From a bacterium (GTDB taxonomy: Bacteria; Verrucomicrobiota; Verrucomicrobiia; Limisphaerales; UBA11358), in contig JAKAFL010000013.1 of NCBI GenBank assembly GCA_021817945.1, positions 4,559 to 68,558 on the forward strand: 64,000 bases of DNA. The letters are read 5' to 3'. The notes under the pieces are model-generated. The model ran no database searches. It had not been told where the DNA came from and was given only the letters and a program-made list of their open reading frames with translations. Below, in pieces: positions 16,841 to 64,000 of the stretch; positions within the stretch are counted from its first letter, which is position 1, and each line of letters starts with the position of its first letter. Made by a program: the position numbers and the translations under genes.

Positions 16841-16874
16841 ACCCGAAAAGCGAAATGGAAAGGTCAAGATGCGG
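16841..16874. mobile_element. MITE family A, single-end fragment
   Basis: ACCCGAAAAGCGAAATGGAAAGGTCAAGATGCGG preceded by TCA. Confidence 0.75.
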
Positions 16875-45301: not shown

Positions 45302-45305
45302 CGCC

Positions 45306-45716
45306 ATGTTCCTGCTCGACATTAATGTCCTGATCGCCCTGGCCGATCCTGATCACGAGCACCACGGGAAGGCCGAATCCTTTTTCCTCGCGAACCACCG
45401 GCTCGGTTGGGCGACCTGTCCGCTGACGGAAAATGGCTTTGTCCGCATCCTCGGCAGTGCCAGCTATCCCAAAGGTCCGGACAGTTCGGATGCCGCCTGC
45501 GCCATTTTGAAACACCTATGCGCCCAGCCGGGTCATCGTTTCTGGACCGACGACCTTTCGCTCCGGGGTTCGCCAAATCTGCCCGTCTCCAAACATTTGA
45601 CCGATCATTATCTGCTCAGTCTGGCTATGCATCGCCAGGGCAAACTCGTCACGTTCGACCGCCATATTCAGGCTGGGAGGATTCCCGGCGGAGCCGCCGC
45701 ATATCTGGTGATTTGA
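45306..45716 (+). CDS. vapC: PIN-domain VapC-family ribonuclease toxin
   Basis: LLDINVLIAL, TENGFVRI, LTDHYLL, LVTFD acidic tetrad. Confidence 0.9.
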   Translation: MFLLDINVLIALADPDHEHHGKAESFFLANHRLGWATCPLTENGFVRILGSASYPKGPDSSDAACAILKHLCAQPGHRFWTDDLSLRGSPNLPVSKHLTDHYLLSLAMHRQGKLVTFDRHIQAGRIPGGAAAYLVI

Positions 45717-45721
45717 CTGCC

Positions 45722-46378: not shown

Positions 46379-46387
46379 AATATCTCG

Positions 46388-47449: not shown

Positions 47450-47461
47450 ATAATCAATCAA

Positions 47462-49330
47462 ATGAACAAACTCAAACTTCATTCACTAGATTGCACTAAA
47501 GAGCGAGTAATGCAGATTGCCACATTATTTCCACATTGTATCACGGAAGCTAAAGACGATAATGGGACGCCTTTTCAGGCTGTAGATTTTGATCTGTTGC
47601 GACAAGAGCTGTCATCCTTTGTTGTTGATGGCCCAACTGAGCGATATGGACTGAACTGGCCTGGTAAACGCGAAGCGTTAGTGACCGCAAATATGCCAGT
47701 GGCAAAAACACTGCGCCCAGCCGTTTCGGAAAGTGTTGAATTTAATGACACACAGAACTTGCTTATTGAGGGTGACAATCTTGATGGCCTGAAACTCCTA
47801 CAAGAAACATTTCTCAACAGAATTAAAATCATCTGCATCGATCCCCCATACAATACAGGTCAGGATTTTCTTTACGAAGACGACTTTGCTGAAAACCTTG
47901 AGACTTACTTGGAAAAAAGCAATCAGAGGGACGAATTGGGAAGCCGTTTGATAACCAACACAGAGTCAAACGGTCGCTTTCACTCTGACTGGCTTTCGAT
48001 GATGTATCCACGGCTAAAACTTGCTCGAAACCTTCTTCGGGAAGATGGTGTGATCTTCATTACGATTTCTGACGTAGAAGTCGGAAATTTACGAAAGCTG
48101 TGCGATGAAGTTTTCGGCGAAGCAAACTTTGTAGCCAACATAATTTGGCAGAAAAAATATACTCGTGCAAACGATGCAAAATGGTTTTCCGATAACCATG
48201 ATCACGTCCTTTGTTTCGCTAGGGACAAAAGTTGTCTTCGTCTGAACAGTCTTCCGCGTAGTGAAGAACAGCTTTCTGCGTATTCAAACCCTGACAATCA
48301 TCCTAAGGGGCGCTGGAAGGCCACACCACTTCACGCGAAAAGTGGCACCAACACAAAATCCTACACGTTTCTCAACGGAACTACTTGGGCGCCGCCTGCC
48401 GGCACTTTTCGTCGCTTTAATGATGATTCAATGCGGGAAATGGATAAAGGAAATGAAATTTGGTTCGGCGCAGATGGGAAGCAGACACCGAGCAGGAAAA
48501 GCTTTCTCAACGAAATCAAAGCCGGTGTAGTGCCAGTCACAATTTGGCCTTACGATGAGGTTGGACACAATCACGAAGCTAACAACGAACTCAAGGAACT
48601 AGGGTTGAATGGAGTCTTTGACAACCCTAAACCGTCACGACTATTTAAGCGGGCTATTTTTCTTGCTAGTTCGTCGCAGAAAGATGACATCGTTTTGGAT
48701 TTCTTCGCCGGATCGGCAACGACTGCAAGTGCGGTGATGAAACTAAACGCCGAAGATGGCGGAAACAGGCGGTTTATTCTGATGCAATTAGCCGAGCCAT
48801 GCAACAAGGCATCCGAGGCATTTAAAGCTGGTTTTACATCCATTTGTGACGTTAGCAAAGAGCGAATTCGCCGAGCTGGCACTAAGATCAAAGCCGAAAA
48901 TGCCACGACGGCTCCTAACCTCGACATTGGCTTCCGCGTCCTGAAGATTGACACGTCGAACATGGCGGACGTGTATTACGCACCGGACGTGGTGAAGCAG
49001 GCCGACCTGGTGGCGCACACGGACAACCTCAAGCCCGACCGGACGCCGGAGGATTTGCTCTTTCAAGTGCTGGTGGATTGGGGCGTGGACCTGTCCCTCC
49101 CCATCCAGCCGGAAACGATTGCCGGCAAGAAGGTGTTCTTCGTGGATGGCAACGCGCTGGCCGCCTGTTTCGATCCCAAAATCAGCGAAGACCTGGTGAA
49201 GGCGCTGGCCCAACGCAAACCGCTCCGCGCCGTCTTCCGCGACAGCAGCTACGCCAGCGACAGCACCAAGATCAACGTGGAGCAAATTTTCAAGCTCCTC
49301 AGCCCGGAAACCGAAGTGAAGTCGCTGTAA
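47462..49330 (+). CDS. mod: Type III restriction-modification methyltransferase
   Basis: IEGDNL, IDPPYNTG, HSDWLSMMYPRL, NPKP, LDFFAGSATT. Confidence 0.95.
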   Translation: MNKLKLHSLDCTKERVMQIATLFPHCITEAKDDNGTPFQAVDFDLLRQELSSFVVDGPTERYGLNWPGKREALVTANMPVAKTLRPAVSESVEFNDTQNLLIEGDNLDGLKLLQETFLNRIKIICIDPPYNTGQDFLYEDDFAENLETYLEKSNQRDELGSRLITNTESNGRFHSDWLSMMYPRLKLARNLLREDGVIFITISDVEVGNLRKLCDEVFGEANFVANIIWQKKYTRANDAKWFSDNHDHVLCFARDKSCLRLNSLPRSEEQLSAYSNPDNHPKGRWKATPLHAKSGTNTKSYTFLNGTTWAPPAGTFRRFNDDSMREMDKGNEIWFGADGKQTPSRKSFLNEIKAGVVPVTIWPYDEVGHNHEANNELKELGLNGVFDNPKPSRLFKRAIFLASSSQKDDIVLDFFAGSATTASAVMKLNAEDGGNRRFILMQLAEPCNKASEAFKAGFTSICDVSKERIRRAGTKIKAENATTAPNLDIGFRVLKIDTSNMADVYYAPDVVKQADLVAHTDNLKPDRTPEDLLFQVLVDWGVDLSLPIQPETIAGKKVFFVDGNALAACFDPKISEDLVKALAQRKPLRAVFRDSSYASDSTKINVEQIFKLLSPETEVKSL

Positions 49331-49333
49331 GTC

Positions 49334-52300
49334 ATGAAGCTGAAATTCAAACAGCAGCGCTACCAGACGGATGCCGTCAAGGCGGTGGTGGATTGCTTCG
49401 CCGGCCAGCCCAAAAGCAAAGGGTTCAAATATGCAGTGGATCCCGGTCGCACGGCGGCTGGAGCGGCGGCCGCTTTGCCCGGCACCGAAGCGGAAGGTTT
49501 CGCCAACGAAAAAATCGCCCTCTCCCACGCCCAGGTGCTGGGAAATTTGCAAGCCGTCCAGCGGCGGCAAAATCTCACCGTCTCGCCCGAACTGAAAAAG
49601 ACTTCCGTCTGCGACGTGAATCTGGATGTGGAGATGGAAACCGGCACGGGCAAGACGTATTGCTACATCAAGACGATGTTTGAGCTGCACCGGGAATACG
49701 GCTGGGGTAAGTTCATCGTGGTGGTGCCCAGCATCGCCATCCGGGAAGGCGTCATGCAGTCCTTCGAGCTGATGACGGAACATTTCCTGGAACAATACGG
49801 CAAGCGCGTCCGCTTTTTCATTTATAACTCCAAGCAATTGCACAATCTGGAGAGCTTTTCCTCCGATGCCGGCATCAACGTGATGATCATCAATGTGCAG
49901 GCTTTCAATGCGCGGGGCGAGGATGCCCGGCGCATTTATGCGGAGCTGGATGATTTTCAATCGCGCCGGCCCATTGATGTGATTTCCAAGAACCGCCCCA
50001 TCCTGATCCTGGATGAACCGCAGAAAATGGAAGGCAAGGCGACGACGGAGAAGCTGGCGGAGTTCCATCCGCTGATGATTCTGCGCTATTCCGCCACACA
50101 CAAGACCGAGCACAACAAGGTGTATCGGCTGGATGCCATTGACGCCTACAACCAGAAGCTGGTGAAAAAGATCGCCGTGCGCGGCATCACGGTCAAGGGG
50201 CTGTCCGGCACGAACGCCTATCTTTATCTGGAATCCATCAAGATTTCGACCACCAAGCCGCCGGAAGCGCGGGCCGAGCTGGAGATTCAGCAAAAGAGTG
50301 GCATCAAGCGCGTGTTGCGCATGTTGCGCAAGAACGACAATCTTCACGCTTTGTCCGACGGCTTGGAGCAATATCGCGGCTTCGTGGTGTCCGACATCAA
50401 TGCGATTGAGAACACCATCAGCTTCACCAATGGCGTCGTGCTTGGTGCCGGTGAGGCCACCGGTGACGTGAGCGAATCCGCCTTGCGCCGTATCCAGATT
50501 CGCGAGGCCATCAAGGCGCATTTTGAAAAGGAAAAACTGCTCTTTGCCCAGGGTATCAAGGTGCTGTCCCTGTTCTTCATTGATGAAGTCGCAAAATATC
50601 GCAGCTATAACGAGACCGGCGAACAGGCTGGTGAATATGCCCAGGTGTTCGAGGAGGAATACAACAGCCAGCTTAATGAAGTGCTGACCCTGGAAGACAC
50701 GCCCTACAACCGCTATCTCAAAGGCATTCAAACCAGCCTGACGCACGACGGCTATTTCTCCATAGACAAAAAAACGAACCGGCTGGTGAATCCCGAAGTG
50801 GAGGCGCGCGGCGAATCCGCCGGCGAGGCCAAAGATGTGGATGCCTACGATCTCATATTGCGGGACAAGGCGCGCCTGCTGAATTTCGATGAACCGGTGC
50901 GATTCATCTTCTCCCATTCTGCGTTGCGGGAGGGCTGGGATAACCCGAATGTCTTTGTCATTTGCACATTGAAACACAGCGACAACACGGTGTCGCGGCG
51001 TCAGGAAGTCGGGCGCGGTATGCGCCTCTGCGTAAACCAAAACGGGGATCGGATGGATGATCCAGCCATTGTCCATCAGGTGAACGTGCTGACTGTGGTG
51101 GCCAACGAGAGCTACAAGAATTTTGTTGCCGGCTTGCAAAAGGACATCAGCAACTCGCTGTCAGCCCGGCCCAAGCAGGCCAACCAGGAGTATTTCACGG
51201 ACAAGGTGCTCAAGACACCGACGGGCGATGTGAAGGTGACACCGCAGTTGGCCAAGCTGATCGAGCGTTATCTGGTGAAAAACGATTATTCCGACACCGA
51301 CGAGCGTATCACCGAAGATTACCATCAGGCCAAAAAGGAGGGCGCACTGGCTCCGTTGCCGGCAGAACTGGAGCCTTTCAAGGAGCAGGTCTTTCAACTC
51401 ATTGACAGCGTGTTCAGCACGTCGCAGTTGCCCGAAATTGACGATGACCGCCAGGGCAAGGTGAACCCACTCAATGCCAATTTTGAGAAGAAGGAATTTC
51501 AAGAGCTGTGGGGCCGCATCAACCGCAAAGCCATTTACGCTGTTGATTTTGAAACCAACGAGCTGGTTACGAAGTGCATCAAAACACTCGACAAAGAACT
51601 CAAAGTGACGCCACTGCAATACACGGTGACTGCCGGAGAACAGACCCAGGAGGCCACTTATGAGGCGATGAAAAAGGGCGACGCGTTTGTGCTGAAGGAA
51701 AACGCCACCGGCCACCTGACCAGCTCGGCGCGCTCCGCCGTGAAATATGACCTCATCGGGAAACTGGCAGAAGCCACCCAACTGACGCGGCAGACCATCG
51801 CGGGCATCTTGCGGGGCATCAATGTTGCGGTATTCAGCCAATACAAAACCAACCCGGAAGATTTTATTCTTAAGGCCGGCACGCTCATCAACGAGCAGAA
51901 GGCCACGGTCATTGTCGAACACCTCGCCTACGATCCGCTGGAGGACAGCTACGGCATTGACATTTTCACGCAGGAGAAAAAGGAGGACTTGAGCAAAGGC
52001 TTCAAAGCAACCCGGCACATTTACGACTACGTCTTCACCGACTCCTCCAACGAACGGACCTTCGTCGGCGAACTGGATGCCAGCTCGGAGGTGGTCGTTT
52101 ACGCAAAATTGCCGAAAGCCTTCCACATCCCGACGCCCGTGGGAAACTACAATCCCGACTGGGCCATCGCCTTTCAATCCGGCAAAGTGAAGCACATCTA
52201 TTTCGTGGCCGAAACCAAAGGCTCCATGTCCTCTATGGATTTGCGAAAGATCGAAGAATCCAAGATCGAATGCGCCCGCAAATTTTTCGCCAGGATCACC

Positions 52301-52363
52301 AGCGCCCAGGTGAAATATGACGTCGTGAACAGCTATGGAAAATTAATGGAATTGGTGAAGTAA
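49334..52363 (+). CDS. res: Type III restriction endonuclease
   Basis: [34 protein letters not shown]...ETKG nuclease motif. Confidence 0.95.
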
Positions 52364-52379
52364 CCACGTATAAACAACC

Positions 52380-52582
52380 GTATCCGTGTCAGCAAGCCCG
52401 TCTGGTGCCGGCAGTCTGGCTGTGATAGACTGCCGGGACCTCAGGAGATTCTGAGGTGAGCGGCTTTCCAAGCGGAGGGCGTAAGCTGCGCCACCCGGGC
52501 GGCTGGCCAATCGCCAAGCCGGGCCAGGACATCCATCAAATAGGCCCGCAAGTTCGCGTCCAATCAGCGGCACGCCTCCACG
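52380..52582 (-). mobile_element. IS66 right-end remnant
   Basis: Reverse-complement homology to ~17330-17531 including the terminal GTATCCGTGTCAGCAA. Confidence 0.85.
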
Positions 52583-52737
52583 CTCGGAGCGCAGTTCCAT
52601 GAAAAGGCCGCCGGGCCATTGAAGCCGGTAAGCTGACGCCACACCGGGCTGGGGCAGGAGATTGGGTACAGGCAAAAAGGCGGCGGCACTGCCTCATCTT
52701 TTTTATAATTCCTTTTGAAAGCCAATGCTTTCCAAAA

Positions 52738-52763
52738 TGGCGGAAGGGGTGGGATTCGTGCCC
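52738..52763 (-). other. tRNA 3'-end duplicate (probable attachment-site scar, tRNA-Ser-like)
   Basis: Minus strand GGGCACGAATCCCACCCCTTCCGCCA = T-arm 3' half, acceptor strand and CCA; no 5' tRNA half adjacent. Confidence 0.7.
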
Positions 52764-52934
52764 GAAATTTCAATATTTCATGGCTAAAATACACGATTTC
52801 ATGGGCAATTCAAGCATATTCCGAAACTGCTCTGGATAACTTCCTGATACTTTTTGCTGACACTTTTACTGACAGTGCTTCCAATGCAATTAGATGAGAT
52901 AAGATGTCGAACATCGGGCGACGCCTGGCCATTT

Positions 52935-54023
52935 TCAATACGGTGGTGCCAATCGTCTAAACCCGTGAACTAGGACTGCGCTGATGAAAACAAAATTGCG
53001 CAATACGATTGCAGGCCAAAAGCAACCGATGGAACCAGCCGGTTTTCCACAAAAATTTTGTTCGGCCAATCTTACAGCAATTTTCTGCATATACGAAACC
53101 GACCTTGGCCATTCCCATATTTTATCAACCCATTCAGTTGGAATTCCGTTTTTCCCAACGACAGCGCCCGACAGCGCTCCAAGGATTGCACCAACAGTAT
53201 CCGTATCCCCACCGCAATCCAGAGCAGCGGCGAGCGCGGTGCGGAATTCGTCTGGATGCCGCAGCCATGCGTATAGCGCCACGGGAACGACGTGCAAAGA
53301 ATAACCGGTCACACCACGCTTCAAATTCAAACTGCGGACAAAATCTGACACGTTATGATCCGCCGCCAGAGAGGATTTCATTTTGGAAATGATACCCTGC
53401 CATTCTGATTCCTCCGAAAGCGCGGCAAGAGCATCAAACACCTTTGAAGCGTCTCCATGCTGGGTAGTCATTGCCAACGCTGCGGATTCGGCTACGGCCA
53501 AGGCAGCGATGTCTGCTTGCCAACTCCGGTGGGTCAACCGCGTTGACGCCAACACGAATGCCTTCCTTTGTTCCGGCTTCGTGGCGAAATAGGCTCCGAT
53601 GATGGCGCTGCGCATTGGCGGGCCGCTGCCAGCCGAGACAACCGCACATTTTTCTGGGCGAAATCCCATCCACATTTTGATGCAGGATTTGGCAGTGGCC
53701 AAGCCAACGCCACCTGGCAACGCAGCAAACCACCAACGGAATTTCCACGCAAGAGCACGTTGAAATTCGGTCGCACTGTCTGGGTGTTCAAGCAAAGCCT
53801 GTGCAACCATCAAAGTGTGTTCGGTATCATCGCTGACCATCCCTTTGCCGAAAATGAACCGCATTCTCCATTTACCTTTCCAGCGTTTGTGGATTTTCTC
53901 AGCCGAAAGATTTTCTGCGGGCAACCCAAGCGCATCTCCCACAGCCGTGCCAAGCAACAGGCCGGCAAAGCGATCGTTCAAAGTTAAGTTCGGCGCAGGT
54001 GAACTGGTTGCCGGGGCATTCAT
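52935..54023 (-). CDS. ADP-ribosylglycohydrolase (ARH/DraG family)
   Basis: GTAVGDALG, SDDTE, GGDTDTVGAI; ATGA overlap with upstream gene. Confidence 0.92.
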   Translation of the reverse strand: MNAPATSSPAPNLTLNDRFAGLLLGTAVGDALGLPAENLSAEKIHKRWKGKWRMRFIFGKGMVSDDTEHTLMVAQALLEHPDSATEFQRALAWKFRWWFAALPGGVGLATAKSCIKMWMGFRPEKCAVVSAGSGPPMRSAIIGAYFATKPEQRKAFVLASTRLTHRSWQADIAALAVAESAALAMTTQHGDASKVFDALAALSEESEWQGIISKMKSSLAADHNVSDFVRSLNLKRGVTGYSLHVVPVALYAWLRHPDEFRTALAAALDCGGDTDTVGAILGALSGAVVGKNGIPTEWVDKIWEWPRSVSYMQKIAVRLAEQNFCGKPAGSIGCFWPAIVLRNFVFISAVLVHGFRRLAPPY

Positions 54024-54550
54024 TTGTTCTGGTTGATGAAGAACAGGCCCGCAAAAACTTTTGGGTCTATCAAAACACCAGTTCGCGCCTTGGCCTCCAA
54101 CCATGGAATTATCTCCGCCAACGAAATCTCATGAACGATGATGTCCTCATGCGCTACGCCACCGCCTTCGCCGACCCGACTCAAGCCGAGGGCACGAAAT
54201 AGTGTAACGCGTTCTGAGGTGATGCCGCTACAAGCCGGACCAGTGGTTAAAGGTTCAATTTGTTTCGCGTCGTATCCGGTTTCCTCCAGCAATTCACGGC
54301 GCGCAGCTTCAGCGTGAGTCTCGTTCGTGCTGTCCGGTTCATCTCCAATGATGCCTGCCGGCAATTCAATCGTCCGCGCATGAACAGGAATCCGATATTG
54401 TTCCACCAGCAGCATTTTATTTTCCTGGGTCACGGCGACGATCAAAGCCGCGCCTGTGGCGTTGACCCGATCAGCGAATTCCCAATGGCCTTCTTTCACC
54501 AGAGACAGAAACTTGCCGGTATGCAGCGTGGTTTGGGTGGTTTGGTTCAT
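54020..54550 (-). CDS. Nudix hydrolase, ADP-ribose pyrophosphatase type
   Basis: EQYRIP, ELPAG...AARRELLEETG Nudix box. Confidence 0.9.
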   Translation of the reverse strand: MNQTTQTTLHTGKFLSLVKEGHWEFADRVNATGAALIVAVTQENKMLLVEQYRIPVHARTIELPAGIIGDEPDSTNETHAEAARRELLEETGYDAKQIEPLTTGPACSGITSERVTLFRALGLSRVGEGGGVAHEDIIVHEISLAEIIPWLEAKARTGVLIDPKVFAGLFFINQNK

Positions 54551-55170
54551 TTGTTTTTCAAAAGATCGGCGCTTTGCACGCTGGTAATCCCCGCGCGGTT
54601 CATTTCCCCGACGGCGTTCTTAACATCATAGGGTTGGAGGTTTACTCCCCGGCTGGCGTCTTCAATGAAATATGTTTTGAATCCCAACGCTGCAGCATCC
54701 AGTGCCGTGAACTTCACACAATAATCTGTGGCCAAGCCGCACACGAAAACTTCCGTGACGCCTTTTGCCTTGAGCCAATCGCCAAGTCCGGTGCTTTTGC
54801 GATGGCCATTGTCAAACAGACCGCTGTAGCTATCTATGCCGGCGTCGGTTCCTTTGGGAAAGATTTTGGCGATGCGTTGTTGCTGTAATCCCGGCGCGAG
54901 TTCAGCTCCCGGTGTGTTTTGCACGCAATGCGTCGGCCAAAGAGTCTGCGGCAAACCATTCAGGTCAATTTGTTCAAACACTTTTTTGCCGGGATGATTT
55001 GCTGCAAAACTGCCGTGATTTGCCGGATGCCAATCCTGCGTGGCGACAACCAGCGGAAACACGGCTTGAAGCTGGTTTGCAATGGGAATAATGGCATCGC
55101 CGTTTGGCACCGCTAGTGCGCCGCCGGGCAAGAAGTCAGTTTGAATATCAACCAGTATTAGTGCTTTCAT
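54547..55170 (-). CDS. pncA: Nicotinamidase
   Basis: VDIQTDF.PGGAL, QDWHP, WPTHC, KG, GLATDYCV. Confidence 0.95.
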   Translation of the reverse strand: MKALILVDIQTDFLPGGALAVPNGDAIIPIANQLQAVFPLVVATQDWHPANHGSFAANHPGKKVFEQIDLNGLPQTLWPTHCVQNTPGAELAPGLQQQRIAKIFPKGTDAGIDSYSGLFDNGHRKSTGLGDWLKAKGVTEVFVCGLATDYCVKFTALDAAALGFKTYFIEDASRGVNLQPYDVKNAVGEMNRAGITSVQSADLLKNK

Positions 55171-55174
55171 ATCA

Positions 55175-55414
55175 TTATTGAATCAATTTGCGTTGGCGAA
55201 GGAGCGCCACGACCTTGCGCGCCCACACTCGGTCGGCTTCCTTCATGTTGTCTGCCAATTCTGCATAATCCACCCATGAGCGCTGCCATTTTGAGCGGAT
55301 TACCTCCGCGACATCCCCAGCGACAGATTTTGACCAGTGCATCCACTGCTCATGCTCAATTTCGGCAAGGGCCTCAACTAAATTGTCGGTTGGGTTAAGC
55401 GGCATATTATTCAT
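55175..55414 (-). CDS. Small stand-alone RyR-repeat-like protein
   Basis: EALAEIEHEQW...VDYAELADNMKEADR matches the RyR repeat pattern LA..EH..W...V.Y..L....K..DR; ATGA-coupled. Confidence 0.65.
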   Translation of the reverse strand: MNNMPLNPTDNLVEALAEIEHEQWMHWSKSVAGDVAEVIRSKWQRSWVDYAELADNMKEADRVWARKVVALLRQRKLIQ

Positions 55415-56748
55415 CCAATTGCTTCTCTCGCCTCCAACCATTCATTCGGAATGCTCTTACGGCCAGCACTCAATGCAACAATTCCACCTACAATAGCTGC
55501 ATTTGTGTCGCAGTCACCGCCCACGCTGATGGTTTTCCCGATTGCTTCAACAAATTGCAGTGGATAATTAGCCGCCATCCAAATGCAGAACGGAACCGTG
55601 TCAGGAGCCGTCACCAACGAACCGTTCCCCAGCGACTTGGCCACCTCTGGAAATGGAATTTCAACCGGCGTTTGGCTGGCCAGCAAAATGCCACGGCGCA
55701 CTTTGCTTTCAGGTGTGAGCCGGAGAATTTCAGCGAAGAATTTCTGCGCAAAATCTATTTGTGGCGCGGCGCGCAGTTGCCATGCCATCGCCGCACCAAC
55801 GGCAACAGCGATTGTGCCCGCCACCCCTTCGGGATGAGTATGCGTGACCAAGGCCGAATCGCGGGCAGCGTCAGCGCAGCGGGCGAGATCATCGGCGAAA
55901 TAAGCGCCCAGCGGAGCGACCCGCATTGCACCACCGTTGCCCATTGAGCCTTGACCGCCAAACGCGTTTGCTGCCGTTTCCCGCCATTTGGCCCCGGCGT
56001 TGATTTCCCGCAATTGGATACGGGTCATGCTGCCGTAACCGCGATCTGGATCACGCTCGAAACGACGGGCGAAGCGTCGTGCCAACGCATCCTGATTAAG
56101 TTCCCCATGTGATTTAAGAACGGCGACGATGGAAATTGCCATCTCGGTGTCATCCGTATGAAACCAAGGACCGGCCGGAAGATCGTTCTCTGCCAGTCGT
56201 CGCACCGCATTCGCCGATTGATAACTAAGCATTTCACCGAGCGCGTCGCCAAGACCAAGCCCGTCAAGGGACAATTTCATTCGCTCGACCCGTTCAACGT
56301 GATTGGCCTGCAAGTTCGCTTTCCAAGTATTTTCGTGTTCCGCCAACAGTTCTCGTGCTCGTCGCAGCCATGTCGTCTGAATCCAATCGGTTCCGAGTGG
56401 CCCAACCCGATCCACCATCCAGCCGGCGAACCGAAGTTCATTATGCATGGAATAAACGCGGTCAACGTTCGATGAATGAATCAACACAGGACACACCGGC
56501 ATGAAATCGCAAAGATATTTTGTCACATCAAATCCCGTGCCTGGGTCGGTAGTGATACCTGGTTGCGGATTCAAATCATGATCGAGGCAAATCAACGCGG
56601 CGCTCGGAAAAAACTCTGCACATTCAGCAATCATTGAATGAGCGTCACGCCAAATTTTCAATTCAAACCCGCCGTTTAACTCGGTCACGGTTTTCTGAAA
56701 ACCAGCAATGCGCTCGTCGTTGTCTTCCAGAATGAGGATGGTTTTCAT
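55411..56748 (-). CDS. Atypical receiver (cyclic-phosphate-processing type) fused to ADP-ribosylglycohydrolase
   Basis: ILILEDN..R, LDHDL, TG.D, IHSSN in the N-terminus; GDALG, TDDTE, GNGGAMR, THTH, GGDCDT in the C-terminus. Confidence 0.85.
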   Translation of the reverse strand: MKTILILEDNDERIAGFQKTVTELNGGFELKIWRDAHSMIAECAEFFPSAALICLDHDLNPQPGITTDPGTGFDVTKYLCDFMPVCPVLIHSSNVDRVYSMHNELRFAGWMVDRVGPLGTDWIQTTWLRRARELLAEHENTWKANLQANHVERVERMKLSLDGLGLGDALGEMLSYQSANAVRRLAENDLPAGPWFHTDDTEMAISIVAVLKSHGELNQDALARRFARRFERDPDRGYGSMTRIQLREINAGAKWRETAANAFGGQGSMGNGGAMRVAPLGAYFADDLARCADAARDSALVTHTHPEGVAGTIAVAVGAAMAWQLRAAPQIDFAQKFFAEILRLTPESKVRRGILLASQTPVEIPFPEVAKSLGNGSLVTAPDTVPFCIWMAANYPLQFVEAIGKTISVGGDCDTNAAIVGGIVALSAGRKSIPNEWLEAREAIG

Positions 56749-57707
56749 TCGACCAACACACCTTTCTTTTCCGCAATGCCAATGACAGCTTGAGTCCCGG
56801 AATTGAATTCCAAAAAATCCTTCTCGATGCCATCGCTAAAAATCACGCCGTTCTCAGCCATTTGAGATTCCAAAATCAGCGGAGTCTGATTCGTAACGCG
56901 ACCGAACACCAAAGAGGCGCCGGTCGTCCGCGTTGGAAACGGTTCACGAACGGTGAAATACAGATAATCTGATTCCCATTTGAAACCAGTCACGGCTCGT
57001 TCATAACACCCCGGTTGCGGCTGCTCTTTTTTGTTGCGATTGCCGGAAGCGTAAGCGACAGCGCCAGCACCCGTAAGCAAACTTTTCAGCCAACCAGTTG
57101 CTCCCATGCCAGTGGAAACAATCACGCCACTGGACGAGTGGGTTTCACCAGCTTTGCCGCTTCGAATGAAATATCTGGCCGACGTATGAGTCTTTGGCCC
57201 AATGAAAAGGTCGTTCACTGCATACAACGTCTGCCCGTTATTCAGAGTAGCCTTGGCCATCGTCACCGAATGTGTGCTGCGTTTGCGTCGGACTACTTCC
57301 GGCATCAGCTTTGGCAAATCGCCGACCCGGAACGGCAGCAACCGACCATCCCAGCGTTCTGGATCAGGATTCACGCCGACCACTGGCTGACCATCCAGAT
57401 ATTTCAGCGTATTGGCAACCAAACCGTCCTGGCCAAGAGTGATCACCGTATCGTCCGGCGCGAACACGAAGTTCGGCAGGAAGCTGCGGTCTACGGTCTG
57501 CAAACGACCCATCTGGCCGAGTATTTCTTGGGCCTCGGTCAACGCACGATGATACGTTTCATCTTCACGGAGATAATCCGAGAAATCCGCGCCTTGATGT
57601 TCGACGTAAAAGCGGGCCTGGCTGACGGTGTTGAACCGGATCACCAGTTCAGCCAGACGCGTCGGGCGTGTCACAAGGACGATTTTGTTGTCAGTCAGAC
57701 GGTTCAT
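56745..57707 (-). CDS. NAD-kinase-like protein (divergent)
   Basis: TLGQDG, AVND, SSGVIVSTGMGATGW as variants of the GGDG/NE/DG..TP.GSTAY motifs. Confidence 0.78.
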   Translation of the reverse strand: MNRLTDNKIVLVTRPTRLAELVIRFNTVSQARFYVEHQGADFSDYLREDETYHRALTEAQEILGQMGRLQTVDRSFLPNFVFAPDDTVITLGQDGLVANTLKYLDGQPVVGVNPDPERWDGRLLPFRVGDLPKLMPEVVRRKRSTHSVTMAKATLNNGQTLYAVNDLFIGPKTHTSARYFIRSGKAGETHSSSGVIVSTGMGATGWLKSLLTGAGAVAYASGNRNKKEQPQPGCYERAVTGFKWESDYLYFTVREPFPTRTTGASLVFGRVTNQTPLILESQMAENGVIFSDGIEKDFLEFNSGTQAVIGIAEKKGVLVE

Positions 57708-58729
57708 TTTTTTACCGGTTGCGGCCCCAACAATTCTCGGAGCAAATCCGGCGAAATGTTGAGTTGCCCGATTTTTTCGGCTTTGCCAGCCAGTTCCTGG
57801 AAGGCGAAGGCAATTAGTTGCTCCGGCTTCATGCTGGTGCTGGCGAGCGCTTGTAGAATCCGCGTGTCTGTTTTGCCCAATGCCTTCATTGTGGCCTCAA
57901 CGCCATAAGCACGGGCATCAGCCTCCGCCTTGGTGTTTTGCGCTTCGAGTTCTACCAGCTTTTTTCGCCGATCTTCGATGCCGATGCCGGCTTCAAGCGC
58001 CTCCTTCTCCAGTAGGTGCTTCTTCTCCTGCACCGCACGCTCCGCCTCCATCTGGGTTTCGCGGATTTGGCGTTTTTTATTCTCGACGGCAATCTCGGTG
58101 TTTAACTCATTTTCCTTGATCGCACGTTCCTGCTCCACCGCTGCGTTGCGGCGGGCATAGATCGCTTCGTCCGATTCACGGAACAATTGTTCCCGCGCTT
58201 CGGCTTCAAGCGCACGGGCGGTTTCCGGCACTGGCTTGATGGCCAACACCGACAGCCCAAGGATTTCGAGCCCAAGCGAAGTGATTTCTTCTGCCGCCAC
58301 CAACCGTTTCTTCACGGCGTCAACAATTGCGTCCGATGCACGGATGGCTTCTCGCAAAGCCAGCTTTTGTAGCTCGGCCCGCGCCAGCACATTGACGACA
58401 TGAATGACGCGCTCGGGCAGTTTCTTCGGGTCTTCCGAAGTGTAGCCGTGGCCGTTGGGTGCCAGCGTGAAGTTCAACAACGCCGCCAATCGTTTGGCAT
58501 CGTTTACGCGATATGTCACCTGCCCCTGAATGGTCACGGTTTGGAAGTCCGCCGTCGTTTCCTGAAAAATGAAGGGCACATCGGCGCTCCCCACCGGCAC
58601 GGCCACCAAGGACGTGGTCGGCGCGTAGTAAAAGAAAGACAGTCCCATGCCTTCGCGGACGACTTTGCCGGCCCGATATTGCAACAGGTAGGTGGTGGGC
58701 TGAACTTTGATGAATTTAATCCCGAACAT
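57704..58729 (-). CDS. SPFH/Band 7 domain protein with coiled coil
   Basis: N-terminal beta-rich SPFH pattern (ETTADFQTVTIQGQVTYRV), AE-rich coiled coil. Confidence 0.82.
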   Translation of the reverse strand: MFGIKFIKVQPTTYLLQYRAGKVVREGMGLSFFYYAPTTSLVAVPVGSADVPFIFQETTADFQTVTIQGQVTYRVNDAKRLAALLNFTLAPNGHGYTSEDPKKLPERVIHVVNVLARAELQKLALREAIRASDAIVDAVKKRLVAAEEITSLGLEILGLSVLAIKPVPETARALEAEAREQLFRESDEAIYARRNAAVEQERAIKENELNTEIAVENKKRQIRETQMEAERAVQEKKHLLEKEALEAGIGIEDRRKKLVELEAQNTKAEADARAYGVEATMKALGKTDTRILQALASTSMKPEQLIAFAFQELAGKAEKIGQLNISPDLLRELLGPQPVKK

Positions 58730-58773
58730 AATGTGCCTTTCGTTTAATGTTTTCTCCGTCAGTCAAATTTGTT

Positions 58774-59463
58774 TCACAGTTCAAAATTGAATCCGCGCTT
58801 TTTGAGTTTCTCGTATTTATCCGCATCGAACCGGAACAACTGCGCCGGACGATGGCCTCCGGCCATCTGGGTTTCCTTTAATGCCACAAGCAATCCGAAC
58901 CCGAGGACTTTCTTGCGGAAATTCCTCTTGTCCAAATCCGATTCGAGAATCGCTTCGTAAAGATGTTGCAAGTCGGACAGGGTGAACTTCGGGGGCAGCA
59001 ACTCGAAACCAATCGGCTGATACCGCACCTTGCCCTGCAACCGGGCCAGCGCTGCTGCCACAATGTCGGCGTGGTCAAATGCCAACTTGGGCAACTTGGA
59101 AATGGGAAACCATTGGGCATTGGCCGCGTCAGTCGCCGCCTTTGCCTTGTGGTCAGTTAGTTTGACTAGGGCGTAGTGTGCCACGCTGACCACACGTTCG
59201 CGCGGATCGCGATCCACCGTGCCAAACGTGTAGAGTTGTTCGAGAAAGACATTTTCGAGACCCGTCTCTTCGGCCAATTCACGACGAGCAGCAACATCGA
59301 GAGTCTCGTCCACTCGAACGAAACCGCCAGGCAAGGCCCATTTCCCCTTGAAGGGCTCAAGTGCGCGCTGGATCAGCAGCACTTTCAGTTCGCTTTCGTC
59401 AAAACCGAAGACCACACAGTCCACGGTCAGAGCCGCACGAGGATATTGATAGTTGTATGCCAT
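58774..59463 (-). CDS. nrtR: Nudix-related transcriptional regulator NrtR
   Basis: WALPGGFV...[22 protein letters not shown], w[12 protein letters not shown]. Confidence 0.92.
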
Positions 59464-59471
59464 ATTTTATT

Positions 59472-59515
59472 CGTGTTTTCTTTACACGTTCTATTGATAG
59501 TGTATATTTAACACC
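59472..59515. promoter_or_regulatory. Two tandem candidate NrtR operator palindromes
   Basis: CGTGT-N7-ACACG (59472-59488) and GTGT-N7-ACAC (59500-59514) fit the GT-N7-AC NrtR core; TTGACA on the minus strand at 59517-59522. Confidence 0.75.
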
Positions 59516-59584
59516 ATGTCAAGCGATTATTATCTGTTCGCTTGGATGCCGGGTGTCCGGTTAAATAAACAGCAGCAATTCCGT

Positions 59585-60468
59585 ATGAAAATCAGCAAAG
59601 TCGTCATTGTCATCAACCGGTCAAAAGCGCACGCCACGCAGACGGCCGCCACGCTCAAGGCGGTTCTGGACCGCGAGCGGGTGAAACAGGAGTGGGTGGA
59701 AACCCTGCCGCCCCAGCGCAGTCTTTACCGCCGCCTGGGCGATTTACGGAACAAACAGGCTGATCTTGTCATTGCCTGTGGTGGTGATGGAACATTGTTG
59801 CAGGCAGCGCATCGGTTTCGCGGCACAGGGATTCCAATTCTCGGCATCAACATTGGCTATTTGGGGTTCATCACATCCGTCAGAGGTGATCGCGTGCGAC
59901 AAGAAATGCGGCGTGGCTCAACGCGGAATTTGTCATCAGCCAGCGCACCGCACTCGATCTGGTGATTGAAGACCCTAAGCGGCGCATTCTGGGCTGGGCG
60001 CTTAACGATGCGCTCATCATCCGAGGCGATAATCCGCATTTAATCAGCATCTCCGCCCGGATTGGCCAGCGGCGCCTGACTAATTATCGCTGCGACGGTT
60101 TGATTGTTGCGACGCCGACCGGCTCGACGGCTTACTCGCTGGCTGCGGGCGGGCCAATCATAAGTCCAGAATGCAGCGTGCTGACAATCACGCCAATTTG
60201 TCCCCAGGCCCTGACCAATCGTTCTGTGGTGGTGAATTCGACCGAGCCGATTGAAATGAAATTAGATGCGACTTCGGGGCCGGGAGTTGTGCAAGTGGAC
60301 GGCATGACTTTGGCAAAAGCCAAACCGGAGAGTCGCATCACCATGAAAACCTCAAAAGAATCCGTCCCCATCGCATTCCTGCCTGAAATCAATTACTACG
60401 ACATTTTGGGCGAAAAGCTCAAATGGCATGGTGACGGCATCTCGAAACCCAAATACGGATACGCATGA
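59585..60468 (+). pseudogene. nadK: NAD kinase with a single frameshift near 59915
   Basis: GGDGTLL and GINIGYLGF in the first frame; LNDA and DGLIVATPTGSTAYSLAAGGPI in the second; junction cgt-gg-ctc-aac lacks one base. Confidence 0.85.
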
Positions 60469-62081
60469 GCTATTTACTTTTTCCAGGCAGGCACCTGGTT
60501 AATACGACATTTCAGGAACATTATTTGAAACGTGTCCTGACCGAACCGCCTGCTGCAATTCCCGGCTTTGTTGCCGGGGGCGCTGCTTTTTCGAAGCCGC
60601 CGGGCGAAGTTGTTTTTGCCATCACTTCAGCCAATCAGGAAAATTCCCGTTTTAATCCGATTCCATTTCACATCCGCGCCGTGGGCGTGGACCGGTTTGC
60701 GCGACAGCTTCAAAAGCAAACACCTTTCCGTTACCGGGTGCTGGGGATTCCGCATTACGGTCACACAAAAAACTTTGCCGCCTTTACGATCAAGGAAATT
60801 GCCTATCAAAGTGAGCATACTATCAAGCTTTCACCGGAAAATTGCATCATCCTGTGTTCCACACCGGAAGTCATCCGGCTTTATCAGGAACTTGGTTTCG
60901 CGGTTGTGTCTGCTGAATTGAGCGTGTCGCAAATCCATCCGGCCACACCGATTGAAATCATCCGCGAAATCGGCGGGCAAAAACAAAACTGGCGTGAGGG
61001 CAAATTGGCCGGGACGCAACTCGCCGTCAGTCATATCAGTTTGTTTGAGGATTTCCCGGAAGTGCCACAGCGCATTGCACGACTGTATCAGGACCCACTG
61101 ACCAATCAGGAAGGCAGCCTGACCGAGACCCGAAATTACAGCACCTACGCCCGTGGCATGAACGAGATCATCCGGCTCAAATTTCTCGACATTCAAAAGG
61201 CGATACGCTCCGGGCGTATTGTGGATGAGGGGTGTGCCGATGGTGCGTTGCTCGCCGAAATCAGCCGTGAATTTCCCGACTCGGATTTATTCGGTATAGA
61301 TTTGTCCTCGGAATTTGCCAGCCGTTTTTCGGAACGCCAGCGCGCGGGTGAATTTGGCGGTGCTTATGTCCATTTCTTTCACCGCAACCTTTTGGATCGG
61401 ATTTTTGAACCGGAATCCGTTGACACCACCATTTGCAACAGCACGCTCCATGAATTGTGGAACTACGCCGAAAAGGAAAAAACCGTGCTTGCTTATTTAA
61501 GTGAAAAATTTCGGCAACTGCGGCCATCCGGCAGGCTGGTCATTCGCGATGTGGTCGGCCCGGAGCATGGCGAACAAGAGGTCTTGTTGTGGTGCTCAGA
61601 CGCCGATGGCCAAAATCACTCTGCCGCTGAAATTGCCAAACACAAAGATCGCAGCCCGGAATGGCTTGGTAAATTATCAACGCGGAGCCGCCTTTTTCTT
61701 TTCGCGCACGATTTTTTGGGCGGACAAAATAGCTTTTCTCTCAAAGAGGAATCGCATCAGGGTAAGTCTTGCTTCCGGCTTACGCTCCAGCAAACAGGGG
61801 AATTTCTCTCCAAGAAGGATTACGCCGATAATTGGTCTTCGGAGATGAACGAAGAATTTTGCTTTTGGAGCTTCTCGAAATGGAAGCAGGTTCTTGCAGA
61901 AGTTGGATTTAAGATTTGCGAAAATCCAAACAATGTGGCCGAGGGTTCACGTGTTTATATCAACCCTTGGATCGTGGAACGCCGCCACACCGGACACGCA
62001 GAAATCTCCGATTTGCAAGGGCAGGTTTTGCCGTGGCCGCCAACGAATATGGTTCTCGTTGCAGAAAAGCCATTCCATTGA
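60465..62081 (+). CDS. Fusion of a NadM-like Rossmannoid N-terminal domain and a class I SAM-dependent methyltransferase
   Basis: FPGRH and TSANQENSRFNPIPF..R (cf. NadM GRFQ / GSAQ....NPF...ER); VDEGCADG, GIDLS, STLHE, LRPSGRLVIRD. Confidence 0.7.
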   Translation: MSYLLFPGRHLVNTTFQEHYLKRVLTEPPAAIPGFVAGGAAFSKPPGEVVFAITSANQENSRFNPIPFHIRAVGVDRFARQLQKQTPFRYRVLGIPHYGHTKNFAAFTIKEIAYQSEHTIKLSPENCIILCSTPEVIRLYQELGFAVVSAELSVSQIHPATPIEIIREIGGQKQNWREGKLAGTQLAVSHISLFEDFPEVPQRIARLYQDPLTNQEGSLTETRNYSTYARGMNEIIRLKFLDIQKAIRSGRIVDEGCADGALLAEISREFPDSDLFGIDLSSEFASRFSERQRAGEFGGAYVHFFHRNLLDRIFEPESVDTTICNSTLHELWNYAEKEKTVLAYLSEKFRQLRPSGRLVIRDVVGPEHGEQEVLLWCSDADGQNHSAAEIAKHKDRSPEWLGKLSTRSRLFLFAHDFLGGQNSFSLKEESHQGKSCFRLTLQQTGEFLSKKDYADNWSSEMNEEFCFWSFSKWKQVLAEVGFKICENPNNVAEGSRVYINPWIVERRHTGHAEISDLQGQVLPWPPTNMVLVAEKPFH

Positions 62082-62089
62082 CGTCTGGC

Positions 62090-64000
62090 CTATTTCATTT
62101 TGGAAATGAGTGATTTCAATTCCGCAAGCTCAACCTCAAATCCGCCTGATAAAATTGGAAACCGACACCACGTTTTAGGGTCAAGATTCTCATCGTCGAG
62201 GTGAAACGAAGGTGCGTAGCGTTCGCGTTTCCACTGGTTGCGGCACCAGAGCTTGAAAAATCGCTCCACCCAAATGCCGAGCTGCTGCGGAGAAAAGTTG
62301 GGAAACTGGCCGCGCATCAATTCAACGACTTCAACTGGAGAGTTTTTGTCGCGGATTGCCGCGCGCTCAATGGCATCGAGCACGTCATAAGGCATGAGAT
62401 CATCCTCGTCGGTCTGGTGACGGTCGGCGGGGCGCAACTCGGCAGTCGGCGCCTGTTGATTCACGGCGGCCAGGGCGGGAATGGAATGGAATCCAGCCGG
62501 GCCTTTCGTTTCGAGCCAGCGCAACCACAAGCGCAGAAATGCCTTGTCAATGCCGGCAATTGGACTCAATCCGCCGCTGGTATCGCCGTCCATCGTCGCG
62601 TAACCCACGGCGGCTTCGCTGCGGTTACTGGTGGAAAGCAGCAGCGCATTGTTCAGGTTGGCGAGCAGCCAGATTCCCGGTGAACGGACGCGCGCCTGGA
62701 TGTTTTGTAGCGCCAAATCATCCCGCTTCCAGTTCAGCTTTCGACTTAGCGAACTCTCAATGGCACGCAAGTAACCATGATGGATTTCTTCCACATCCAG
62801 TTCAAGGTGCGTCGCTCCGATGGCGTCAGCGATGGCGCGAGCAGCCGAGCGTGTAACCTCTCCGCTGTTGGCTGTGGCCTGATAAGCTGTCGTCAGCAAT
62901 GCTCTGGTCAAAGATTGTGGTTTGATCTTTTGGGGAAGCTTTTGGACATACGCGAGCTTTGTCCGAAGGGCATCCGCGCCCAATTCAGCCAACGCCATTT
63001 CCAGCGAAAGCGATACCAGGCAGGAAACCGCAGCCGAGTCAGCTCCACCGCTCAAAGAAACGACAAATCCTTGTGAATGGCTTTTGCGCAGGTAATCAAA
63101 AAGCGCCAGTGCCTCCGCCCGCAGGAATTCTTCTTCCTTCAATTTTGGACTGGTTTCCCACGTTGAAGCAGGAACAAGTGGTTTTGTCTTTTGCTTGGCC
63201 TTCACCTTCGGCCATCTGAATGGCTTGATTACTCGCAATTTGTTATCACCGCCCAAATCCGGCTTAAAACTCGCCGTTCGCGCCTGATTCATCCGGGTGG
63301 CATCCACGTCAATCTCCGCGCTGGTAATTTTGAAATCTGCAAAGCTAAATCGAGGGCCAGCGGCGATCAATTTTCCACCCGACGCAATCAGCGCGCCGCC
63401 ATCATAAATTGCGCGACCGGATTCATTGCCAAGCAGATTTGCGTAAACGTAGCTGACGCCGAAAGCGCGCGAACCTTCGAGAACGAATCGTTTCCGCACT
63501 TCAAGTTTGCCAAACGCAAAATGGCTGGCGCTCGGATTCAAAATCAGATCAATCCCGTGCAGGGCCAGTGTCGCGCCCGGACGATTGGCCACCCAAGCAT
63601 CCTCGCAGATTTCAAAACCGATCTGGACGCCGCCGATGTCAAAATGAATGTCGCCAATGGGAATCGTGGTTCCATCGGGCGCGGTGAAATCATCCCGCAC
63701 GCCGGCGGGCCACGCCTTGAACCAGCGCGGTTCGTAATGAATCCCGTCGCCCGCGAGAAATCGCTTGGCGACCAGACCGATCAATTTGCCGTCCACCACG
63801 AGCGCAGCGCAGTTGAACAGGCCGTTCTGATGGAAAACCGGCAATCCAAACGACACGACCATGCCACGCGTTTCCGGCAACAAGTCTTGCAAGGCATTCC
63901 ACGCCCGTTGATGAGTATTGGTCGCGTGAAAGGCGTCCTCGCAGCCATAGCCCGTCAGGCAGAGTTCCGGCAGGCACAGCACGCCAACGCCCTGCTCGCG
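62090..64000 (-). CDS. nadE: Glutamine-dependent NAD+ synthetase (5' end outside the window)
   Basis: LPELCLTGY, EICEDAW nitrilase domain; SLSGGADS, QNIQARVR, NRSEAAVGYATMDGD, PTAEL. Confidence 0.95.
   Translation of the reverse strand, partial: REQGVGVLCLPELCLTGYGCEDAFHATNTHQRAWNALQDLLPETRGMVVSFGLPVFHQNGLFNCAALVVDGKLIGLVAKRFLAGDGIHYEPRWFKAWPAGVRDDFTAPDGTTIPIGDIHFDIGGVQIGFEICEDAWVANRPGATLALHGIDLILNPSASHFAFGKLEVRKRFVLEGSRAFGVSYVYANLLGNESGRAIYDGGALIASGGKLIAAGPRFSFADFKITSAEIDVDATRMNQARTASFKPDLGGDNKLRVIKPFRWPKVKAKQKTKPLVPASTWETSPKLKEEEFLRAEALALFDYLRKSHSQGFVVSLSGGADSAAVSCLVSLSLEMALAELGADALRTKLAYVQKLPQKIKPQSLTRALLTTAYQATANSGEVTRSAARAIADAIGATHLELDVEEIHHGYLRAIESSLSRKLNWKRDDLALQNIQARVRSPGIWLLANLNNALLLSTSNRSEAAVGYATMDGDTSGGLSPIAGIDKAFLRLWLRWLETKGPAGFHSIPALAAVNQQAPTAELRPADRHQTDEDDLMPYDVLDAIERAAIRDKNSPVEVVELMRGQFPNFSPQQLGIWVERFFKLWCRNQWKRERYAPSFHLDDENLDPKTWCRFPILSGGFEVELAELKSLISKMK

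Follow-up and report, generated by a model that had tools for sequence, protein, structure and literature searches.

A predicted NrtR regulon that may couple ADP-ribose turnover to NAD(P) resynthesis in a soil Verrucomicrobium

We analysed a 64,000-nucleotide stretch of DNA (the window) from a soil Verrucomicrobium, whose right-hand part carries a block of genes for nicotinamide adenine dinucleotide (NAD) and ADP-ribose metabolism headed by a gene for a putative NrtR repressor. The window corresponds to C73:4559-68558, where C73 is one of the 99 contigs of a 3.76-Mb assembly that is 94.7% complete, and the public loci closest to it come from metagenome-assembled genomes of Limisphaerales and other Verrucomicrobiota. 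On the reverse strand, an operon at 52935-59463 encodes NrtR, an SPFH protein, an NADK2-like kinase, a cREC domain fused to an ARH3-like ADP-ribosylglycohydrolase (ARH), an RyR-fold protein, PncA, a Nudix hydrolase and a DraG-like ARH, as assigned with Pfam and NCBIfam. Five of the junctions are ATGA overlaps on the coding strand (SPFH/kinase, kinase/cREC-ARH, cREC-ARH/RyR, pncA/Nudix and Nudix/ARH), and from these junctions the start of the RyR-fold protein was set at M10 of its listed open reading frame (ORF), giving 79 amino acids (aa), and that of the last ARH at M28, giving 362 aa. Divergently from nrtR run nadK and a gene for a 538-aa protein, themselves joined by ATGA, and nadE converges on this pair.

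This layout agrees in most respects with the first-pass annotation, which had described an eight-gene, mostly ATGA-coupled operon, a divergent nadK + NadM-like/methyltransferase pair and a convergent nadE. All eight genes lie where it had placed them, and nadE is present and runs from 62090 on past the window end. The divergent pair exists as well, with its NadM-like part recognizable at the fold level, but nadK proved to be a pseudogene. That annotation had also noted the absence of PncB from the window and suggested looking beyond 64 kb; the contig extends 2.4 kb further and carries pncB just past the window end, directly 5' of nadE, then a gene encoding WGR and REase_MTES_1575 domains, and finally a repeat common to six other contig ends. 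The features are collected in Table 1.

Table 1 Genes and regulatory features of the locus, in window coordinates.
Feature	Position	Strand	Match or remark
DraG/MJ1187-like ARH, operon's last gene	52935..54023	-	PF03747 2e-57
Nudix hydrolase, ADP-ribose/ADP-compound type	54020..54550	-	PF00293
pncA, nicotinamidase	54547..55170	-	NF008623 265 bits, over the 174-bit cut-off
Single-repeat RyR (Repeat12-type) fold protein, 79 aa	55175..55414	-	PF02026 E 0.0038, below cut-off
cREC receiver-like domain fused to ARH3-like ARH	55411..56748	-	PF20274 3.1e-7, PF03747 9.1e-54
NADK2-like kinase, NAD-kinase fold, 320 aa	56745..57707	-	Closest solved relative human NADK2
SPFH/Band-7 protein	57704..58729	-	PF01145 1.1e-16
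nrtR, Nudix-like sensor + winged-helix repressor, operon's first gene	58774..59463	-	PF21906 1.1e-26, PF00293 9.1e-23
Promoter-like TTTACA-16-TATATT, rightward unit	59481..59508	+	10/12 consensus matches; -10 hexamer within operator
NrtR-type operator TAGTGT-N7-ACACCA	59498..59516	.	nrtR/nadK divergent region; pattern scan with <=1 mismatch
nadK, second copy, pseudogene	59585..60468	+	One base missing at 59915
NadM-type NMNAT-fold domain (2-208) + class I S-adenosylmethionine methyltransferase (~225-538), 538 aa	60465..62081	+	Methyltransferase Pfam families
nadE, glutamine-dependent NAD synthetase	62090..64000, on to 64096	-	PF02540, PF00795
pncB, directly upstream of nadE	window-equivalent 64101-65573	-	PF17767, PF17956, PF04095

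Both Pfam domains of the nrtR product (PF00293 and PF21906) scored over their cut-offs, and its Nudix box, inspected by eye in the translation, seems intact. In addition to the operator in the divergent region, we found a perfect palindrome, TAGTGT-N7-ACACTA, immediately 5' of the pncB start codon (C73:70133). When one mismatch was allowed, these were exactly the two sites of this pattern in the 3.76-Mb genome; two sites are no excess over chance for a 12-letter pattern, and the notable point is that both fall in promoter regions of the locus. For comparison with related loci, one genome per species was scanned with a 12-row alignment of the kinase; of the 587 relatives that this confirmed, we retained the 80 best loci. 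The palindrome occurs 19 times in 15 of these 80 loci, every time beside nrtR, SPFH, pncB or ARH genes. Since a shared operator stands at both promoter regions and recurs at related loci, we concluded that nrtR-...-ARH, nadK-538aa and pncB-nadE belong to a single predicted NrtR regulon of three transcription units. The earlier proposal of NrtR control is borne out in this wider form, in which one type of predicted operator would serve the operon, the divergent pair and pncB-nadE alike. That ADP-ribose would act as the effector is taken from the literature on other NrtR proteins (PMC2330246; PMC9503650, section 3.8).

The promoter-like site of the rightward unit is a consensus match only, as 4 such sites were found in 52300-64000 against a shuffle mean of 7.5. 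At one related locus (L014, on a 1.8-Mb contig), an SPFH gene and a kinase gene whose product is 86% identical stand alone behind a perfect operator at 8846-10960; nrtR is absent within 8 kb of this pair, so that control would have to act there in trans.

The genome contains two ARH genes, and both lie in the operon. The closest solved relatives of the cREC-fused enzyme are ARH3 structures, and alignments show that its DDTE and GGDCDT motifs are kept. The cREC domain has been predicted to open 1''-2'' cyclic ADP-ribose phosphate (Iyer et al. 2022, PMC9503650). The last ARH is closest to 1t5j and to DraG (2woc/2woe), with DDTE and GGDTDT kept. Its C-terminus (window 52935-53020) contains a hydrophobic stretch with a Kyte-Doolittle value of 1.93 over 19 residues (361-379 of the long ORF), which aligns to the end in relatives and may be a membrane tail. 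Among NCBIfam models, the operon Nudix hydrolase comes closest to NudE, YffH/AdpP and ADP-ribose diphosphatase, without reaching the cut-off of any. Contig C81 carries a paralogue of this hydrolase (64% identical) about 5 kb from nadA (C81:3527-4033 and 9324-10238); the repeat at the end of C73 also opens C81, and these contigs may lie side by side in the genome. Judged from translations and alignments, the catalytic signatures of the operon enzymes are intact.

The kinship of the last ARH with DraG and MJ1187 agrees with a regulatory cycle of the cell's own, in which the ARHs would undo modifications made by an endogenous transferase encoded elsewhere, as in the DraG/DraT pair, and salvage would be co-regulated to balance NAD use. 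A Streptomyces nrtR-draG operon is listed as 'reversible protein ADP-ribosylation' by Rodionov et al. (PMC2330246). However, Pfam detected no ADP-ribosyltransferase gene and no sirtuin domain in the operon or its neighbours, not all transferase families having been searched genome-wide, and the block was not found in most of the same-genus genomes searched, which is unexpected for core regulation. Such an endogenous cycle is improbable in our view.

The RyR-like identity put forward in the first-pass annotation holds at the fold level. A structure model of the protein has a mean predicted local distance difference test score (pLDDT) of 92.3, and in a Foldseek search every row shown was a ryanodine-receptor repeat or a Bacteroides 'putative ryanodine receptor' (TMq 0.5-0.65, probability <=0.98). 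We found 159 homologues, with a length of 79 aa in most of the 120 listed, and a profile of 30 family members gave RyR-type chains in 5 of 6 matches to the PDB (best E 0.016). H21, W24 and D61 are invariant across these 30 sequences. When 300 other genomes of the class were examined, the gene occurred in 3, each time in an NrtR/NAD/ADP-ribose cluster, and in 2 of the 3 it was fused to a Nudix domain; the fusions score 23.4 and 16.9 bits against PF02026. In the literature searched we found no description of such RyR-Nudix fusions.

Two phage proteins reported in 2026 preprints offer the nearest functional comparison. RyDEP hydrolyses the ribose-ribose bond of 2'/3' cyclic ADP-ribose (2'/3'cADPR), yielding ADP-ribose, and is encoded within the NAD-rebuilding operon NARP1 (PMC13232231), and the RyR Tad protein sequesters 2'/3'cADPR (PMC13251945). 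As far as these preprints describe their proteins, the window protein has in common with them the all-helical fold of the Repeat12 type. If we read the residue spacing in the RyDEP preprint correctly, the ligand or catalytic positions His-x-x-Trp and Asp would correspond to H21, W24 and D61, and the position of the phosphate His is taken by Gln in our family. RyDEP in NARP1 and the window gene, which lies between ARH and pncA, are both tied to an NAD-rebuilding operon. Unlike the phage genes, however, the window gene is chromosomal and under predicted NrtR control, and its product is a single repeat of 79 aa with Gln for the phosphate His and a Pfam score below the cut-off; its partner is a Nudix hydrolase, whereas that of RyDEP is Adps/Namat. 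The RyDEP preprint makes no mention of Nudix, NrtR, prophage or any word beginning with chromosom-.

Phosphatase genes occur at some of the related loci. The closest relative, L013 (kinase 92% identical), has a PP2C gene at the place of the RyR gene, together with a third ARH and with pnuC and a nadR-like gene. At L100, a DSP-PTPase gene and a 412-aa ORF with no Pfam match (L100:8690-9313 and L100:6140-7378) lie beside an RyR-Nudix fusion, and this DSP-PTPase also matches the Pfam family 'PTP-NADK' (phosphatase fused to NAD kinase).

SPFH had been counted in the first-pass annotation among the components that plain salvage does not explain. The related loci reverse this picture, for SPFH and the kinase are the invariant core and the ADP-ribose genes are variable add-ons placed around them. 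In 78 of the 80 loci the SPFH gene lies directly 5' of the kinase gene and in the same orientation, and the remaining 2 are truncated by the contig start; in one representative (P0093, 574 aa) the two are fused. This adjacency and the single fusion suggest that the SPFH protein may hold or bind the kinase. The SPFH protein shows no N-terminal hydrophobic stretch or membrane anchor by hydropathy, and its mean column identity is 70% across 41 sequences from Verrucomicrobiota, Planctomycetota, Bacillota, cyanobacteria and Pseudomonadota.

The kinase has no Pfam match and reaches 16.7 bits against NCBIfam NF002521, whose cut-off is 309. Its best matches in the PDB are the NADK2 chains 7r4j and 7n29, with a weak similarity (E 6e-6) spread over two short stretches. 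The conserved columns of the family are GxDG, ND and SSSG...STGxGSTGW, with the residues G92, D94, G95 (GQDG in the window), N165-D166, S192-G194...G202 and W206, and we take GGDG, NE and the glycine-rich motifs to be signatures of the NAD-kinase fold. NADK2 shares the GxDG, N-E/D and glycine-rich motifs; unlike NADK2, the bacterial kinase is always paired, and once fused, with an anchor-less SPFH protein, in a genome that also has a canonical nadK. A search of 1.84 billion proteins gave 2055 representative clusters of the family at E<=1e-3, of which 312 reach E<=1e-30. We rejected a phage origin, since the kinase was found at a single locus in viral contigs and neither it nor the SPFH or RyR-fold protein has a PHROG match.

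The accessory genes at the SPFH-kinase loci share an NAD or ADP-ribose theme. Within the 80 loci, the neighbours include NrtR (20), ARH (20), Macro (10), PncA (10), Nudix (7), NadE (6), methyltransferase (6), PncB (5), KptA (5) and NMNAT-like (3) genes. At least one NAD or ADP-ribose neighbour was present in 33 of the 80 loci; for the 43 loci that have at least 5 kb on both sides, the count is 18.

The salvage genes of the block are partly unique in the genome. No paralogue of pncA was found by tblastn and pncB is the sole copy, and a second nadE (25% identical) is present on contig C10. Elsewhere the genome encodes de novo nadA and nadC, nadD, the second nadE and an intact nadK, the latter being a housekeeping copy on contig C1. 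The nadK of the divergent unit is split, with the N-terminal NAD-kinase domain in one frame and the C-terminal domain in another. Contigs of two peat-metagenome runs (~98.5% identical) have an extra T behind 59915 that gives a single nadK frame, whereas the contig of the likely source run shows no difference from the window, at a depth of ~19. The intact nadK of L013 encodes 266 aa.

The 538-aa protein has 513 homologues, which are named merely methyltransferase. In its structure model (pLDDT 80.7), residues 2-208 superpose on the Methanocaldococcus jannaschii NMNAT 1f9a with a Z score of 16.3 and a root-mean-square deviation of 2.7 over 164 of 164 residues (VIA), and residues 225-538 match methyltransferases with Z ~17 (VIA); the Foldseek rows shown for the whole model were all methyltransferases. 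NadM-type nucleotidyltransferases have the signature (H/T)xGH after the first strand. At this site, located by its position after strand 1, the protein reads T-T-F-Q, and H-Y-G-H stands after strand 3. By our own reading of these positions the signature looks degenerate, so the role of the NMNAT-fold domain may be limited to binding a pyridine nucleotide on behalf of the methyltransferase. SPFH-adjacent Firmicute methyltransferases also have an N-terminal domain, and its equation with the NadM-fold domain was rejected: the two are unalignable, at 13-23% identity, and the methyltransferase part alone is shared. In PADLOC, the methyltransferase matches mad2.

The block is accessory and has been horizontally acquired or spread. 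Of 36 same-genus genomes drawn, the kinase was present in 2, pncB in 1 and nrtR in 1, and in 24 genomes from other families of the order the kinase was present in 2 (one partial, with a stop), pncB in 8 and nrtR in 4. The first-pass annotation had named, as part of what would refute its reading, that the genes be the sole core salvage copies in all relatives; the accessory distribution shows that they are not, so this check does not refute it.

A patchy occurrence is usual for salvage routes, and it fits a simpler account in which the block is a plain niacin salvage regulon (pncA, pncB and nadE, with pnuC and nadR in relatives), the ADP-ribose enzymes tidy up routine by-products, and no conflict, toxin or immune signal is involved. 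The sole genomic copies of pncA and pncB favour this account, as do the pnuC and nadR-like genes added by the L013 divergon and the poverty of the related-locus flanks in defence genes; NrtR regulons of salvage genes are, moreover, classic (PMC2330246). However, niacin salvage needs neither two different ARHs nor a cREC domain nor an RyR-fold protein, and searches of the genome found neither a sirtuin nor KptA, the enzymes from which routine ADP-ribose by-products usually stem. The gene content also shifts between relatives with 92%-identical kinases, as it does in conflict-type loci, and gene fusions link the RyR-fold family to Nudix. We hold plain niacin salvage to be possible, on the unlikely side; if the locus were merely niacin salvage with extras, its value would lie mainly in the better annotation of several unnamed families.

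We favour, with a probability of about 0.6, an accessory, horizontally spread NrtR regulon that couples the breakdown of ADP-ribose derivatives to NAD(P) resynthesis. What the analysis shows is which genes are present and how they are coupled, together with the operator, the folds, the conserved motifs and an accessory distribution; the effector, every enzymatic step and the trigger are our inference, as follows. NrtR would sit on two operators, one over the -10 element of the rightward promoter between nrtR and nadK and the other directly before pncB, and free ADP-ribose would release it, so that three units are transcribed: nrtR-SPFH-kinase-cREC/ARH3-like-RyR-pncA-Nudix-ARH, the broken nadK with the NadM-fold/methyltransferase gene, and pncB-nadE. 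The two ARHs would strip ADP-ribose from proteins or O-linked adducts, the cREC domain would open cyclic ADP-ribose phosphate, and the RyR-fold protein would bind or cleave ribose-ribose cyclic ADP-ribose isomers. The ARH, cREC and RyR-fold steps would all give free ADP-ribose, which is the presumed inducer of the regulon, and the Nudix hydrolase would split it into AMP and ribose-5-phosphate, thereby resetting the switch. PncA, PncB, NadD (encoded elsewhere) and NadE would convert the released nicotinamide to NAD, and the NADK2-like kinase, held by SPFH, may restore NAD phosphate (NADP) or phosphorylate a related dinucleotide. The recovery logic of the first-pass annotation is supported, in that the predicted enzymes form a coherent route from ADP-ribose derivatives through ADP-ribose to AMP and ribose-5-phosphate, and from nicotinamide to NAD. 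The origin of the ADP-ribose derivatives is probably extrinsic.

Several findings weigh against this coupling of ADP-ribose breakdown to NAD(P) resynthesis. Some concern the identifications: NrtR scores 188 bits against the NCBIfam equivalog NF050029, whose cut-off is 400, and the RyR-like protein reaches 17.9 bits against PF02026 (gathering score 27.4), with weak Foldseek E-values of 0.3-2 for a short chain. Others concern the family at large. No NAD or ADP-ribose gene was present in the examined span of 47 of the 80 SPFH-kinase loci, or in 25 of the 43 with at least 5 kb on both sides, and these loci, being the best 80 of 587 confirmed, are tilted to close relatives. In viral contigs the kinase family is all but missing, its one locus there lying at a contig end. 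At the locus itself, the nadK of the divergent unit is broken, the pnuC and nadR-like genes that lie between nadK and nrtR in L013 are not there, and the peat-run contigs cease to match the window left of 59451-59473. The L013 arrangement and the divergence of the peat contigs indicate that the window locus has probably lost both genes, and together with the broken nadK they suggest that it may be decaying.

As the source of NAD breakdown, the first-pass annotation had proposed ADP-ribosylating or NADase toxins, or TIR/sirtuin immunity. Neither these nor phages were supported as the trigger. TIR_2, ThsB_TIR, SIR2, KptA and RES were each not found in the 94.7%-complete genome. The presumed substrates of the RyR-fold protein and of cREC are therefore left with no known source in the cell, and any substrate would have to come from outside or from families not searched. 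In a PADLOC 2.0.0 search of the operon proteins, 7 of 8 gave no match and NrtR matched PDC-S07 via its Nudix domain, with no membership in a system. We also drew 127 ORFs at random from the 403 ORFs of at least 200 aa in the flanks of 77 related loci; 8 of the 127 match PADLOC at E<=1e-15, and 4 of these 8 are 'mad3' matches on ABC-type ATPases.

A more far-reaching form of this interpretation is a mobile 'NAD-damage response', in which RyR-fold, cREC, ARH3-like and DraG-like enzymes of the host would convert all classes of NAD-derived toxin or immune products, namely protein-ADP-ribose, cyclic ADP-ribose phosphate and 2'/3'cADPR signals, to free ADP-ribose. This would induce the regulon through NrtR and then be recycled by Nudix and PncA-PncB-NadE, and an SPFH cage with the NADK2-like kinase would rebuild NADP. 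We regard this extended form as doubtful. If it were true, the RyR-fold protein of the host, with or without a fused Nudix domain, would become the first cellular enzyme to quench or scavenge cADPR-isomer signals.

Should the coupling of ADP-ribose breakdown to NAD(P) resynthesis hold, the locus would be a cellular counterpart both to the degradation of cADPR-isomer immune signals by RyR domains, shown in 2026 for phages only, and to the reversal of extrinsic ADP-ribosylation by ARG operons, predicted in 2022. It would also assign the widespread pair of SPFH and NADK2-like kinase to a specific regulatory circuit whose operator is clear. The RyR-Nudix fusions, for their part, offer a direct lead to a substrate chain from cADPR isomer through ADP-ribose to AMP.

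Two bodies of earlier work bear on this interpretation. The NrtR regulons described by Rodionov et al. in 2008 (PMC2330246) have in common with the locus a Nudix + winged-helix repressor, a palindromic operator before genes of the pncA/pncB/nadE type, and divergons, and that account also lists, under NrtR control, an nrtR-draG operon and genes named 'nrtX-nrtY' that had no assigned function. Compared with the regulons described there, the window brings salvage, two ARHs, cREC, RyR-fold, Nudix, SPFH-kinase and NadM-fold/methyltransferase genes together in one predicted regulon. Verrucomicrobia are not named in the searched text of PMC2330246.

The second body of work concerns the ARG-centred systems of Iyer, Burroughs, Anantharaman and Aravind (2022, PMC9503650). 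According to the sections devoted to these systems, they share with the window an ARG/ARH with no coupled transferase or sirtuin, a Nudix-type negative regulator that is thought to sense ADP-ribose (Nudix/WYL in >42% of systems), add-on genes that vary between close genomes, and an occurrence in several phyla; systems that lack their own transferase or sirtuin were predicted there to counter extrinsic, viral ADP-ribosylation. A coupled phosphatase (rhodanese-phosphatase, calcineurin, HD or HAD) is reported in ~55% of them, and is thus not universal; Pfam detected none in the window. The chaperones of these systems (vWA, SseB and TY-Chap) likewise gave no Pfam match in the window, where TY-Chap may lack Pfam models, and SPFH is present instead. 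The window instead has SPFH, kinase, cREC, RyR-fold and NAD salvage genes. The main text of PMC9503650 makes no mention of NAD kinase, NadK, PncA, nicotinamidase, Band 7, SPFH or RyR. Overall, the locus resembles an NrtR salvage regulon merged with ARG-centred systems, and its logic is largely foreseen in the literature; in the literature searched we found no description of salvage, cREC-ARH, host RyR-fold, SPFH-kinase and NadM-fold/methyltransferase genes under one operator.

The block adjoins a defence island, as had been noted, whose genes were confirmed as Type III mod (47462-49330), Type III res (49334-52363), a PLD-type gene, DUF4391 and an SNF2 helicase gene. This position recalls a stand-alone anti-phage system acting through NAD or ADP-ribose signals, and the families of the RyR-fold protein and the ARHs are used in phage-host conflicts, as reported in PMC9503650, PMC13232231 and PMC13251945. 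However, the block has no effector or NADase, no PADLOC system matches were obtained, the related loci lie outside defence islands, and all the parts rebuild or detoxify while none kill, which makes a stand-alone system of this kind very improbable. Association with defence islands as a trait of the family was rejected on the flank sample, where 8 of 127 ORFs matched, half of them generic ABC ATPases; given how few defence genes flank the related loci, the restriction-island neighbourhood is probably a local chance in a variable region. The att scar of the first-pass annotation was not substantiated either: we found no tRNA, no integrase among the scanned ORFs and no flanking direct repeat. 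The sole exact repeat of 18 nucleotides (53375-53392 and 62092-62109) sits inside the last ARH gene and at the nadE stop, where it encodes the same pentapeptide, ISKMK, in the ARH and at the NadE C-terminus; it was rejected as a scar and is probably due to chance.

The surroundings of the block show some further features. The defence-type genes span 41870-52363, and the SNF2 helicase matches PADLOC 'HKD+Snf2' at 8e-123. The G+C content is 44-47% at 46500-48500, against 55% in the genome, and the first 39 kb of the window (1-39 kb) are ordinary chromosome, with an IS66 transposase fragment in a short ORF (16637-17200) amid core genes. At the left edge of the variable region lies a Fic/DOC family gene (Fic_N, Fic and SoFic-like C; 40229-41371). 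The 570 bp that separate the restriction gene from the last ARH gene (52364-52934) contain a G+C-rich ORF of 110 aa with no Pfam match and a terminator-like hairpin at 52678-52694 (+). The WGR + REase_MTES_1575 gene beside pncB (L003:13210-13989, window-equivalent 65651-66430) was rejected as a part of the system, since none of the 80 loci carries a counterpart of it. Its long ORF begins with 34 residues that recur with 97-100% identity at the ends of contigs C28, C67, C86, C6 and C81 or close to them, and with 77% identity on C79, so that C73 ends in a dispersed repeat.

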